A stretch of 64,000 nt of DNA, taken from assembly GCA_951406725.2 (NCBI GenBank), contig OX597819.1:131316001-131380000 (forward strand), written 5' to 3'. The DNA is from Octopus vulgaris (taxonomy: Eukaryota). The position numbers and the translations under genes were made by a program. Positions 37,253 to 45,760 of this stretch are shown here, one piece after another (position 1 is the stretch's first letter; every line of letters begins with the position of its first letter). The notes beneath the pieces were generated by a model, which ran no database searches, was not told where the DNA came from, and saw only the letters and a list, made by a program, of their open reading frames with translations.

Positions 37253-37290
37253 TATAAAAAGGGGTTGTTATGGCTTTCACTCATCACAAA
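37253..37290 (+). promoter_or_regulatory. TATA box and probable initiator of the cytokine-like gene
   Basis: gcTATAAAAagggg at 37253-37259; TCA initiator-like motifs about 26-30 nt downstream; ATG-free leader up to 37448. Confidence 0.65.
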
Positions 37291-37447
37291 CTCAAAGGTT
37301 TGCAATTGGTCACTATCTCGCCTTGCTAACGATCTTAAAGCTTCAAATTAACGCCGACCTTACAACAAAACAGCTATCTTTCACACTAGGTAGACATAGC
37401 CAACTGTACACTTCACTGATAAAATCACCAAAATCCAAATATCCACA

Positions 37448-37451
37448 ATGG
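37448..37451 (+). CDS. Cytokine-like gene exon 1, coding part (ATG G)
   Basis: acaATGG|gtaaga: A at -3, G at +4, consensus donor; first ATG downstream of the TATA box. Confidence 0.75.
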
Positions 37452-39967
37452 GTAAGATCAGATTTTTTGCTTTCTGTACATTATTTTCTTCTCAGCAAAT
37501 AATGATTTTTCTTTCTGCTGTTTGTTTTTCTTTTTGGTCACACACACACACACACACACACACACATCGAAGCCAAAATAATTTTTGCATTATGCCTCTA
37601 TCGTTCCAGTTTGCCGTTTCATCGCCGTCGTATTGCTCTACAGTTATGCTTTGCAAATCTTTGCCTCACCAATTCCTTCGTCGGCCACAGATGAACTCCT
37701 CACTTCGGCAAAAGAATCATCGATAATGACAAGAGTCGTAGTTGGAAACGTATTGCAGTATTATGTAAGTAATAATTATATGTTAAAAATAATAATAATT
37801 ATGGAATGGCGGTTGAGGGACCAACGAAATACCTTGTGGTATTTTGAGTTAATTTATTTTCTAAGTTCAAATCTCACCAGATTTGATTTTGTCATTAATC
37901 CTTTCTGGGCGATAAGTCAGTAAGTAGGGCTTCATCCTTCCGTGAACGATTGACCAGTCACCAGTAATATACCGGGGATCAATTTAATCGATTGTGTATG
38001 TTCGATGGCAATATCGGAACGATTGACCAGTCACCAGTAATATACCGGGGATCAATTTAATCGATTGTGTATGTTCGATGGCGATATCGGAAATCACTGT
38101 GCTGGATGATCGATCGTTTGTCAGGAATAGCAAAATACTGAACCAATTGCCTCATCTTATTTCGTTAAGTTTTCAGGTTACGAGATCGAACGACACCAAA
38201 GTCAAAGGCATCATTTTTCATCCCTCTACGACCATGTCCTGTCTTCTACAACTTTCTAATTTACCAATTGCTAAGACATTTTCAAATCAATAATTATATC
38301 TTGATAAAAATTCTTAAAAAAACAACTCTTAATTATTGAGAGATAAAATACACGAAACACCTCTAATCGATTTCTACCTTGTTTAACTAATTATGAAGTA
38401 ATTAATATTATGTAATTAATATAATTTATTTCATTTTTTAGTGTAACCACTCAGTGTACCCTTCCTGCTACAACTGTAGTAATTTTATCCGAGAAATAAC
38501 CAAGTCAATAGATTCAACTTTTCCCGAACTACACCTCAATGAAACTTTGGATTTCACAAACTACGACGATTTCCAGGTATGTTTTTAATGAATATTTCAG
38601 TATTTTTACAACCAGCGATTGTTTCATTAGGTCAATATTTTCTTCTTCATTGGGGTTGATTTGAAGAAGAAAAGAAGCGGTCATTTTCACGCAACTCTGG
38701 TGGGTTTCATCTGGGATTGGAAAAGTCCCGATGATTCGGTGGTCTTTGAGTGGGAAAGACCATAACGAAATTTTTGTTTTTTAAGTGGGTAACAAGCAAA
38801 TCGAAAGACTAAGTTTTCGAAGGTTCAACCAAGCTAATAACTTTTATCACAAAGAGGATAATCTAATTTAATTCTCTAATCCCATCTCTTCACGTCAGAG
38901 TTAGGTCACCCATTTTAGAGTCTTGTGCTGTAGTAAAGCAAGAGTTTTATGGGTCTTCAGTATACCTCAGTGCCAAGACAATGTTTATAGGAAACGGCAA
39001 TAAATTGACAGAACCGATAATTGGCTGGAGTAAAAAACATTGCGCTATTCTGTGAATATAAATATGGATTCATATAATTTTGCCCAAGAATGGTGAGGGA
39101 GCGTCAGGGTTGCAACATTAGCAGACTAAATGTTGGGGCTAATATAGTGTAATCAATTCAGTCGATTATGATTCGAACCTTCAAACAAATGCAGGTGTGT
39201 GTGTGTGTGTTCAGTAAATCATAAATCCGAAAAAGAAGTTATAGAGCAGTAGAGTTATAGAGATCAAGATAGACATGGCCAATCTATGGTGCTATCCTGA
39301 GTTTCACGTCCATAAAGTGCTTAGCTTTACAGCGTTTCTTCAGATCCTAAAACCCATTGGCCTATGGTCTCTCCAGCAAGTGGCCTCTCTAGAAAATGGA
39401 GGATTGTCTCCCTTTGACCGCTAAGTAATTGACTATGTTGGCGTGTGGGTCCCAGGACGTCATCAGGAATTTCGGGAAGTGCAACAAGGGTCCGAAGACT
39501 CCTGTTCTGGAGTTAAGGATGTTCCCCAGGTCGAGGAAGTCCTTTAATGTCATCGCTCGTTCACGCACAGTTTACAACGCTTAGTCAGATTTTTGTAGGG
39601 GTCTGGAGTTTCTAGAATCTTCCATGATACTATATATGGAGTTTCATCGTCCTTCAGCCGCCATGCATGGCTGGGGAAGGACGTAGCGTATCTCCTTTCC
39701 AGGATCCTCAAAGAGAAACTGTGGAGAGGGCCTGTTTGAACGCGTTACCGCAATTGACTAAAATGTTCTTGATATTAGGGGCGCAGCTAAAAGAGACCCT
39801 TAAGTTGTGTCTGTTGAAAATGCATTCGTACTTATATGAACGTGTAAAGTGTTTATCCACTAAGCTGATGAACATCCTACCTACACACGTTTTTACGTTG
39901 AGGGAGAAAGGGGGGGTGCAAACCAAATGATATTTCTGCGGCGCTTCCTTCTGCGGGTGTTAGTACC

Positions 39968-40020
<53 letters not shown>

Positions 40021-44067: not shown

Positions 44068-44157
<90 letters not shown>

Positions 44158-44190
44158 TGTGTGTGTGTGTGTGTGTGTACATACACAGGT

Positions 44191-44236
<46 letters not shown>

Positions 44237-45063
44237 AATTCTGAACATTCCACCAATTTTTAATCGACAGTTGATGTCGATGGAAAAATCGGCCAGTAAT
44301 GTAATATGTCGCCTGCGTTAGATTTGAACCCACAAACTAGTTATCTAGTTATCTGTCAACAGTTAGATAAGATGGGACTTTATCTTGACCATTCTTTGTC
44401 CATACGTTTCTCAAAGAAAGTCCAAGCTAATACCAGTTCCATTAACTTTAATCCAAGAAACGTTCTAGAAACATCATCCGTTGTAAAAGATTTCTTTAAT
44501 CCATTCCTAAAACCCCGTGGATGGTTTCGGTTTCTTTAAGAGAAAGACAAAAGGAAATTATTTCGGGATTTTGTTGCAGTGATAAGTGGGAGCAGAGTAA
44601 AACTGCCAAGAGCTTCATTGGCTTGGAATATTGAGATGGAATCGGTAACAGGGAGACAGAAGACATTCCGTAGAACAGCCGGCTCTACATACATAAGATG
44701 CAAACGGTGGCGACTCTTCATCGGTGTCAATATGCCATAATGATGATTGTTACAAAACACTTTCCTGTTAATTTCTATCGATCTTCAGAGTTGTTTCGAT
44801 TGATCAAAATATTTATTGATTATCGATTTCAGATTACTTATTATACACTTCAATCAGATTAATCAAGTGATTTACATGTTTTTGTTTTTTTACCATTTTA
44901 GGTGCAAAGCTACGCTCTTCAAGACCCCGCCGTTGACATCAATCTCCTAGTAGAACCGGCGACCCCCATAATAGTGACCCGATGGTTTTCAATGGTCACT
45001 CTCCATCATCTACAAGAACAAGTTAGTCGAGTGAAAAACAAGCTTCTATTAGTAAAATTATAA
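37448..45063 (+). CDS. Spliced 5-exon gene: join(37448..37451,37610..37764,38442..38576,43733..43963,44902..45063); 228-aa secreted protein, putative long-chain four-helix-bundle cytokine (IL-6/LIF/IL-11-like)
   Basis: All four introns are GT-AG with pyrimidine tracts, and the exons join in frame with no stops: [228 protein letters not shown]. It has a signal peptide, intron phases 1,0,0,0, an upstream TATA box and downstream AREs plus AATAAA. The gene model is well supported; the family call is inference. Confidence 0.8.
37610..37764 (+). CDS. Cytokine-like gene exon 2 (signal peptide and helix A)
   Basis: tcgttccag| acceptor, TATTAT|gtaagt donor; encodes (V)[22 protein letters not shown]...VLQYY. 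Confidence 0.85.
37944..38092. repeat. 73-bp tandem duplication in intron 2
   Basis: gaacgattgaccagtcaccag...gatggc(a/g)atatcg twice. Confidence 0.9.
38442..38576 (+). CDS. Cytokine-like gene exon 3 (AB loop)
   Basis: tcattttttag| acceptor, CAG|gtatgt donor; 135 nt, phase 0-0, open frame. Confidence 0.85.
39290..40305 (-). mobile_element. Penelope-like element relic in intron 3 of the cytokine-like gene
   Basis: [31 protein letters not shown]...[24 protein letters not shown]...GAAACTC remnant at ~39297-39343 (-). Confidence 0.8.
40853..41659. mobile_element. Non-autonomous TIR DNA transposon in intron 3
   Basis: 24-bp TIR GGATCTTTTC(A/T)ATTCTGAAGCCAG with one mismatch; no clear TSD. Confidence 0.7.
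42105..42552. repeat. (CATA)n/(GATA)n microsatellite
   Basis: Direct inspection. Confidence 0.95.
43369..43569. mobile_element. hAT-like MITE
   Basis: CAGTGGTCTTCAA...TTGAAAAGCGCTG termini, repeated GGGGTTCC motifs, near-identical 8-bp flanks atatata(c/t). Confidence 0.6.
43733..43963 (+). CDS. Cytokine-like gene exon 4 (helices B and C)
   Basis: gtttcttcctccaatctag| acceptor, ATG|gtaggt donor; 231 nt, phase 0-0; first 77 aa of ORF 43733..44263. Confidence 0.85.
44902..45063 (+). CDS. Cytokine-like gene exon 5 (CD loop, helix D, stop)
   Basis: ttttaccattttag| acceptor; 53 aa then TAA; amphipathic C-terminal helix [22 protein letters not shown]. Confidence 0.85.
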   Translation: MQSYALQDPAVDINLLVEPATPIIVTRWFSMVTLHHLQEQVSRVKNKLLLVKL

Positions 45064-45760
45064 TCAGGGATTTATTTAAATGAAACATTTCAGATGTGTG
45101 TGAGTGCGTGTGTGTGTCTGTATGTGTTGTGTGTGTGTGTCTGTATGTGTTGTGTGTGTGTGTCTGTATGTGTTGTGTGTGTGTGTCTGTATGTGTTCTG
45201 TGTGTGTGTCTGTATGTGTTGTGTGTGTGTGTCTGTATGTGTTGTGTGTGTGTGTGTCTGTGTTGTGTGTGTGTGTCTGTATGTGTTGTGTGTGTGTGTC
45301 TGTATGTGTTGTGTGTGTGTGTGTCTGTGTTGTGTGTGTGTGTCTGTATGTGTTGTGTGTGTGTGTGTCTGTATGTGTTGTGTGTGTGTGTGTGTCTGTG
45401 TTGTGTGTGTGTGAGTGTGTGTGTGTATGCGCGTGCACGAATGTATGTAAATATGTATATTATTTTACATTAATTTATTCACACCTTATGGCGAGCGCTG
45501 TGGTCAGGTAATGGTCAATCGTTTCTGCAATACTGAATCACTCCGACCACTTCAGATACGATGCTGATACCTTTGAAAACGCCATCGATTCTGCATTCGG
45601 TGTTTTCTGAAACCGTATAGGGCATTTGATTGTAATCGAACTTCCAGAAAACAAAATCAATATTTATTTAATGAACATAATCAATATTTAATTTATATTA
45701 AAATGGTTAAATTGTAATAAAATTTGTGAAAACTATTTCTTTTGCTTTTTTTATTTCATT
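45064..45760 (+). promoter_or_regulatory. 3' UTR with AU-rich elements and poly(A) signal
   Basis: ATTTATTTA at 45070 and 45662, further ATTTA at 45473 and ~45686-45695; AATAAA at 45716-45721 followed by a T-rich tract. Confidence 0.6.
45094..45430. repeat. TG-rich minisatellite within the predicted 3' UTR
   Basis: Units of about gtctgtatgtgttgtgtgtgtgt. Confidence 0.9.

Follow-up and report, generated by a model that had tools for sequence, protein, structure and literature searches.

A coleoid family of predicted secreted four-helix-bundle proteins in Octopus vulgaris as a probable class I cytokine family

Results

A five-exon gene in the window

We analyzed a stretch of 64,000 nucleotides from Octopus vulgaris (NCBI GenBank assembly GCA_951406725.2, contig OX597819.1, here C6, positions 131,316,001 to 131,380,000 of the forward strand), referred to below as the window, in which an earlier note had proposed a hidden gene for an IL-6/LIF-type helical cytokine. 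The window contains a real five-exon gene encoding a protein of 228 residues (Table 1). All four introns are bounded by GT and AG and lie in phases 1, 0, 0 and 0, and the joined frame runs through 228 codons to a stop, as the earlier note had laid out; the two ends that it had assigned to the gene, TATAAAA and AATAAA, are in place, as are those of its quoted peptide motifs that were searched for.

A search of proteins with exon 4 gave one match among 15 candidates, the Octopus sinensis RefSeq protein XP_029637482.2, annotated as "uncharacterized protein LOC115212847". It is equal in length, shares the junctions and is identical at 227 of 228 residues, with V219M as the sole difference. Because length and junctions agree, the gene model has been predicted independently, and RefSeq models draw on RNA-seq. 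The gene is therefore not hidden in the sense of being unannotated; it has a RefSeq model to which no function is attached. The start in exon 1 is identical in XP_029637482.2 and in a paralog at C6:74.30 Mb, which is also preceded by the TATA-like box. Sequencing runs were uninformative on splicing: of 24 runs listed for exon 4, 20 contained the stretch or part of it and none was recorded as RNA, and the reads of four runs on 37,200–38,700 comprised repeat fragments of intron 2 only, covering no exon or junction. A scan of the promoter (36,900–37,447) found no STAT, κB, AP-1 or IRF consensus, only loose C/EBP-like words.

Table 1. The five-exon gene and its flanking features (positions within the window)
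Feature	Position	Strand	Description
Promoter/5′ untranslated region	36712..37447	+	Conserved in the closest paralog (719 bases aligned, 44 of them mismatched)
TATA-like box	37253..37259	+	TATAAAA, 195 nt upstream of the ATG; putative function
Coding exon 1	37448..37451	+	4 nt: ATG and one base, then phase-1 intron
Exon 2	37610..37764	+	155 nt; residues 2–53; predicted signal peptide (residues ~1–20) and helix A
Exon 3	38442..38576	+	135 nt; residues 54–98; Cys54, Cys65, predicted short AB helix (65–75), long AB loop
Exon 4	43733..43963	+	231 nt; residues 99–175; predicted helix B, Cys-rich BC loop (Cys127, 137, 143), helix C (Cys156)
Exon 5, coding part	44902..45063	+	162 nt with stop; residues 176–228; predicted long CD loop and helix D
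Putative 3′ untranslated region	45064..45721	+	7 ATTTA pentamers, which may be due to chance as the DNA is A+T-rich; polyadenylation signal AATAAA at 45716–45721

Protein features and predicted fold

Hydropathy of the protein (Kyte–Doolittle, 19-residue segments) reached its maximum of 1.85 within the first 30 residues and did not exceed 1.09 beyond them, which is consistent with the signal peptide, and with the lack of a transmembrane segment, that the earlier note had described. Together with five N-glycosylation sequons, this profile points to a secreted, soluble protein whose 228 residues fall within the ~170–250 typical of long-chain class I cytokines. In the family alignment described below, Cys127, Cys137, Cys143 and Cys156 are nearly invariant and Cys54 and Cys65 are part of the consensus; judging from sequence and not from a model, these six cysteines may form up to three disulfides.

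Structure was predicted with AlphaFold2 for the window protein (alignment of 21 rows) and for an array-type paralog that is 32% identical to it, the two alignments being shallow at 21–24 rows. The model of the window protein (predicted local distance difference test, pLDDT, 82.3; predicted template-modelling score, pTM, 0.77; five models spanning pLDDT 67–82) is an up-up-down-down long-chain four-helix bundle, with helices A (25–56), B (94–126), C (150–175) and D (198–225) at the positions that had been proposed, a long AB loop containing a short helix, and a long CD loop.

A structural search of 48,161 solved chains, independent of Foldseek, placed this model closest to IL-11 (Z 15.8, root-mean-square deviation 3.0, 160 residues aligned), CLCF1 (15.5), LIF (15.0) and IL-6 (15.0, deviation 2.7, 149 aligned), followed by CNTF (14.6), viral IL-6 (14.1), IL-27p28 (14.0), and OSM and placental lactogen (both 13.7). 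Rows 1–14 were class I long-chain cytokines and rows 1–28 were all helical cytokines, with interferons, EPO and TPO at Z 9–10; the first non-cytokine fold appeared at rank 29 with Z 7.9. The superposition covers residues 22–228. Among Foldseek ranks 1–30, all 26 matches listed were long-chain cytokines (G-CSF, LIF, prolactin, CNTF, IL-27, CLCF1, GH, IL-6 and IL-11), and re-scoring put CNTF (Z 17.2) and G-CSF (16.9) in the lead. The leading rows lie within 1 Z unit of one another, and the closest vertebrate cytokine therefore cannot be singled out. The paralog model shared this topology and ranking (IL-11, Z 15.0; LIF, 14.8).

ESM Atlas, a language-model method different from AlphaFold2, agreed with this placement: its features scored 0.92 for LIF/OSM (a family on 11% of the cluster) and 0.90 each for IL-12 alpha and IL-6/G-CSF, and its own model matched cardiotrophin-1 at a template-modelling score of 0.70. 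Taken together, these predictions make a long-chain class I cytokine fold very likely, and the bundle, with IL-11, CLCF1, LIF, IL-6, CNTF and G-CSF as its best matches, bears out what the earlier note had led us to expect of the fold. An Atlas search limited to unnamed clusters gave leads below 0.9 only. At rank 2 the Atlas listed an unnamed cluster of 53 mostly arthropod proteins of 191 residues (feature score 0.90), which is possibly another invertebrate helical cytokine family.

Sequence searches returned no characterized family, rival or otherwise. Pfam gave no family for the window-type protein at E ≤ 10, none of 24 family members matched any cytokine family, and a sequence and profile search of the PDB gave no match; the profiles of the strict IL-6 (gp130) group, namely IL6, IL11, LIF_OSM, CNTF, GCSF and IL12, were thus not matched.

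Exon–intron layout

The exons follow the parts of the predicted fold: signal peptide and helix A come from exon 2, the AB loop from exon 3, both helices B and C from exon 4, and the CD loop with helix D from exon 5. The genes for IL-6, IL-11, G-CSF and GH/prolactin likewise have five exons, phases 1, 0, 0 and 0, and the same assignment of exons to helices. The octopus gene shows each element of this pattern; our literature search gave no confirmation of the 1,0,0,0 layout for vertebrate IL-6, IL-11, G-CSF or GH genes. Fold and intron layout provide two distinct kinds of evidence and jointly favour common descent over convergence, although no series of related sequences connects the octopus and vertebrate groups.

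Interferon genes have phases 0,0,0,0 (10.64898/2026.05.30.728932; PMC4929537; publications are cited here and below by identifier). We considered and rejected a class II helical cytokine of the interferon and IL-10 kind, which would have five or six helices and 0,0,0,0 introns: here the first intron is in phase 1, the main helices number four, and interferons score Z 9–10 against 14–16 for class I structures.

A multicopy family in coleoid cephalopods

Membership of the gene in a family of ~37 copies is not evident from the window alone. Exon 4 had 39 matches in its own genome, 36 of them at E < 1e-4, and 38 of the 39 lie on C6, where ~37 family copies reside, 30 of them in an array of ~330 kb. 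The nearest paralog (64% identical) is the one at C6:74.30 Mb; further paralog types lie at C6 71.08, 71.14–71.17, 124.01 and 124.77 Mb. The array (C6:73956849–74283919), which neighbours the nearest paralog, consists of 30 exon-4 copies of another type, mainly in alternating orientation. In 21 of the 30, exons 2–5 are open and flanked by AG/GT sites, and these copies encode 18 distinct proteins sharing 85–99.6% identity. The array contains two inverted duplications, one of 39 kb (99.1%) and one of 21 kb (99.5%), so assembly may have raised the copy number somewhat.

Gene structure is shared as well. In five other paralog types, examined at base level, introns precede the first conserved cysteine and fall where helix B begins and where helix C ends, as in the window gene; first exons were located for the window gene and the C6:74.30 Mb paralog only. 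Intronless array genes, suggested by open frames of 194 residues, were rejected because the frame runs through a 132-nt intron. This array intron 3 is a multiple of three in length and is stop-free in 20 of 21 intact copies; were it retained, helix B would be set off from the AB loop by 44 extra residues, and one annotated protein includes that insert. Recent common ancestry may be all that its lack of stops reflects. Two further observations concern individual copies. At C6:71140813–71171324, two to three paralog copies have a last exon (helix D) turned into, or overrun by, a long in-frame tandem repeat, and their BC-loop cysteine motif is partly deleted. A lone decayed exon-4-like fragment lies at C6:109758576–109758716.

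Searching 1.84 billion representatives with phmmer gave 17 matches, of which 3 clusters carried no name (5 if partly unnamed ones are counted). The named relatives came from Octopus sinensis, O. bimaculoides, O. vulgaris, Argonauta hians and the cuttlefish Acanthosepion pharaonis, all annotated as "uncharacterized" or "hypothetical", with full-length homologues in other octopods and partial ones in the cuttlefish. A profile search gave 10 matches and added only Argonauta and Octopus proteins. With octopod and cuttlefish members, the family spans both coleoid superorders. The earlier note had proposed a search for orthologs across molluscs; the named relatives are octopods and a cuttlefish, and no named non-cephalopod relative appeared among the 17 phmmer or the 10 profile matches; a longer-protein search, weak as evidence, gave no match among 7,998 scored. 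The O. bimaculoides model P0019, which was kept in the family alignments, has 33 N-terminal residues that match scattered repeat DNA and probably represent a false first exon.

Sequence evolution

Within the array, 107 replacement and 59 silent variants were counted (ratio 0.53; pN/pS, replacement to silent polymorphism, 0.46–0.53, p = 1e-4), and the array is under purifying selection. Between the window gene and its closest paralog, dN/dS was 0.71 (bootstrap 0.50–1.08), and between the two genes at C6:124.01 and 124.77 Mb it was 1.04 (0.69–1.6). Exon 4 is the best-conserved portion across the family; helices B and C changed least (3 of 33 and 5 of 26 residues), whereas about half of the residues changed in helices A and D and in the AB and CD loops, a pattern that fits a conserved core with variable binding faces.

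An unexpected pattern emerged when exons were compared with surrounding DNA, the exons being two to four times more divergent than promoter and intron DNA in both paralog pairs. For the window pair (36,712–45,720 against C6:74.30–74.31 Mb), exon differences were 127/674 and non-coding differences 307/3,376; for the 124 Mb pair they were 133/662 and 235/4,235. Simple positive selection behind the fast exon change found no support, as divergence was just as high at silent as at replacement sites (four-fold silent against replacement sites 12/59 versus 95/423 and 14/53 versus 103/406 in the two pairs). A tree test on 11 rows rejected a grouping in which the window-type protein joins the O. sinensis paralog and leaves out its own O. 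bimaculoides orthologue (approximately unbiased test, p-AU 0.011), so the exons seem older than the split between O. sinensis and O. bimaculoides. On the simplest reading, we suspect that introns and other non-coding DNA were later homogenized by gene conversion.

Searches for receptors and pathway components

Exon-by-exon domain searches of the octopus genome were insensitive, and their negative results do not show absence. On these terms, the receptor domain PF09240 gave no match; PF06328 gave two weak ones, the better lacking a WSxWS motif; and PF17971 (2), PF09067 (8) and PF25552 (1) gave matches that were all below cut-off, the loci of PF17971 and PF09067 proving on inspection to be noise. 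The better PF06328 match was rejected as a receptor, being an adhesion-like gene with multiple immunoglobulin (Ig) and fibronectin type III (FN3) domains at C20:57.27–57.31 Mb. This multi-exon gene (C20:57276000–57306000), in which about seven exons are Ig-like and one is FN3-like, resembles that of a nephrin-type adhesion protein. A WSxWS-like DNA pattern occurred 20 times against 22 in the reversed control, never in an FN3 frame, a result that again does not show absence. For the pathway itself, the JAK FERM domain PF18377 had a single sub-threshold match resembling noise and STAT_bind had none, both in the same insensitive search, and the N-terminal (first coding) exon of a STAT gene was detected above the Pfam cut-off at C17:64031054–64031191 (E 4.7e-7). 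JAK/STAT pathway transcripts are described from the white body of Octopus maya (PMC6522055), and one JAK, one STAT and five SOCS from Aplysia (PMC9334734).

Other features of the window

Judged by eye, the window's 79 long open frames showed no second host gene, only repeat-derived frames and retroelement-like fragments. Among them, frames at 52,073–53,304 (− strand) and 57,424–58,464 (+ strand) resemble, again by eye, decayed pieces of a non-LTR (long terminal repeat) retrotransposon reverse transcriptase. Intron 2 contains a 73-bp tandem duplication at 37,944–38,092, in two copies that are 98% matched.

Discussion

Proposed identity and rival explanations

Based on its predicted features, the window gene likely encodes a secreted long-chain four-helix-bundle class I cytokine that belongs to a coleoid family and signals as a gp130/Domeless-type JAK/STAT ligand, and the models make the family as a whole a probable cephalopod class I cytokine family. 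The helical-cytokine interpretation of the earlier note is supported in this form. The ligand role, which is deduced from the fold, we consider a good deal more probable than any other function. The protein would be exported by way of its signal peptide, glycosylated at its five sequons and stabilized by as many as three disulfides. Through the faces formed by helices A and C and by helices A and D, at receptor-binding sites I and II (sites as described in PMC7378365), it would bind the cytokine-binding module of a gp130/Domeless-type receptor. Two receptor chains would thereby be brought together and JAK and STAT activated; the likeliest settings are haemocytes, blood-forming tissue or wound repair. 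Descent is probably shared with the vertebrate IL-6/G-CSF/GH group, the family being the orthologue of no single vertebrate cytokine. A fuller version of this history, on which we are evenly divided, would have a lophotrochozoan class I family and vertebrate IL-6, IL-11, G-CSF and GH go back to one ancestral gene, with fold and exon layout kept since the protostome–deuterostome split; it would supply the missing ligands of the molluscan IL6R/Domeless–JAK–STAT pathway, and the 30-gene octopus array would be an independent expansion resembling vertebrate interferon clusters.

Several results weigh against a cytokine identity or against a close tie to the vertebrate members. Foldseek found nothing at E ≤ 0.001 (best 0.07), and identity to every structural match was 4–15%. 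Helical bundles may, by the search tool's own caution, score Z ~13–14 through arrangement alone, so that the weight rests on the ordering of the matches, the Z gap and the full coverage. The two AlphaFold2 models are not independent, because their alignments are nearly identical. The earlier note had described all four helices as amphipathic; they are present, and in a hydrophobic-moment test amphipathicity was significant for helix B alone (p = 0.02; one of four). FxxK, which at the N terminus of helix D is the motif of the LIFR-binding LIF, OSM, CT-1 and M17 (PMC9601804), was absent from all seven proteins scanned, and for this reason the protein is not a LIF orthologue; the LIF-like echoes that the earlier note heard in the sequence did not hold up, given the low identity and the missing motif. 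The site-III tryptophan of IL-6 and IL-11 (Trp157 of IL-6) maps near Ile199 and not to Trp204, in a register extrapolated from the alignment ends; with this register, site III looks unlike that of vertebrates, and a conserved Arg-Trp at 203–204, near the start of helix D, is found in several paralog types and in cuttlefish. Because the named sequence relatives are coleoid only, no series of intermediates connects the family with vertebrates. We do not file the family under LIF or the strict IL-6 family; by prediction, its mode of action is that of a long-chain class I cytokine.

A rather unlikely alternative is that the cytokine fold was inherited and then redirected, either to another receptor (a receptor tyrosine kinase, as for IL-34 and CSF-1, or CRLF3) or to an endocrine role as a growth, reproductive or neurotrophic hormone. 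Prolactin and placental lactogen (Z 13.7–14.9), GH (11.3), leptin (10.8) and IL-34 (9.0) do match the model too, site-III motifs seem not to be kept, and the Cys-rich BC loop is specific to the family; however, gp130-family and G-CSF structures outrank the hormones for both models, and a single Dome/gp130-like receptor has been inferred as the ancestral class I receptor of bilaterians (PMC1963337). The 30-copy array and the excess of exon over intron divergence in two pairs bring to mind a different possibility, namely a cytokine-fold gene recruited as a secreted effector with a role other than self-signalling, for instance in salivary venom or gamete recognition, and amplified in an arms race. 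Exons that diverge faster than introns are a pattern of snake venom and cone-snail toxin genes, and the octopus protein is disulfide-rich and secreted by prediction. We nevertheless find such a role improbable: divergence at silent sites matches that at replacement sites, so that positive selection of the simple kind does not apply, the array is under purifying selection, no toxin family was matched in Pfam searches, and the interferons of fish, which are immune cytokines, cluster as well (PMC4929537). Equally little credence goes to a convergent, cephalopod-specific helical bundle of unrelated function, or a modelling artefact. A shallow alignment of 21–24 rows, five models of pLDDT 67–82, relatives in coleoids only and the lack of any significant link by sequence or Foldseek E-value would all be expected in that case. 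What speaks against it is the gap of ~8 Z units to the first non-cytokine fold at coverage of residues 22–228, the agreement of the language-model method, and the exon-to-helix map with its intron phases.

Comparison with known systems

A secreted class I cytokine in octopus would be a testable candidate for the missing JAK/STAT trigger in molluscs. A 2026 survey reports molluscan IL6R-like receptors, JAK and STAT together and IL6 in vertebrates only, with no invertebrate IL-6-type ligand (PMC13203501); that survey is BLAST-based with a 30% identity floor, and the octopus family would escape surveys of this kind. Leptin and IL-6-family cytokines are likewise described as known from jawed vertebrates only (PMC12284397, 2025), and PMC9601804 reports none outside vertebrates. 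Nothing relevant was found in the available portions of PMC12162339, of an octopus visual-system preprint (10.1101/2022.06.11.495763) or of PMC13524488. We found no published cephalopod class I cytokine in a search that left subscription journals mostly uncovered and excluded supplements, which may list these genes, and six LOC identifiers of the family occurred in no paper searched. If the proposed identity is true, these genes would provide concrete ligands for cephalopod haemocytes, the white body and regenerating arms; the long-chain cytokine gene and its intron layout would date to the bilaterian ancestor, much as structure-based work has recently extended IL-1 to invertebrates (PMC13736523); and the combination of secretion, ~200 residues, phases 1,0,0,0 and predicted fold would serve as a search recipe for equivalents in snails, bivalves and annelids.

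Among vertebrate proteins, the gp130 family (IL-6, IL-11, LIF, OSM, CNTF, CLCF1, CT-1 and IL-27p28) together with G-CSF resembles the octopus protein most in predicted fold, ~150–170 residues superposing at 2.5–3.3 Å with Z 14–17. Its members are secreted, as predicted for the octopus protein, and the five-exon 1,0,0,0 layout is that of IL-6, IL-11 and G-CSF; the genes for LIF, OSM and CNTF have fewer exons. Unlike them, the octopus protein shows only 9–15% identity, no Pfam match and no FxxK, and has a longer Cys-rich BC loop, six conserved cysteines and ~37 gene copies. Growth hormone, prolactin and leptin share the fold class (Z 10.8–14.9), with a five-exon layout in GH and prolactin, but rank below the gp130 family and G-CSF, and Hormone_1 was not matched.

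Among invertebrate proteins, the oyster CgIFNLP is also a molluscan helical cytokine-like protein but differs in being class II-like (PMC9756803). No bivalve protein was matched by sequence. An oyster IL-12p35-like protein has reportedly been described, and it could lessen a claim to the first molluscan class I ligand. Drosophila Upd1–3, the ligands of Domeless, are mainly alpha-helical JAK/STAT ligands of a protostome (PMC7378365), the role predicted for the octopus family; no named arthropod protein was matched in Pfam, phmmer or profile searches, which would miss a highly diverged relative. The amphioxus GHl is an invertebrate class I helical cytokine of ~208 residues with low identity to vertebrate members (PMC9010856); it belongs to a chordate, whereas the octopus family is a protostome one, and no sequence match connects the two. 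With Upd and GHl already known as invertebrate helical cytokines, the octopus family is not categorically new.

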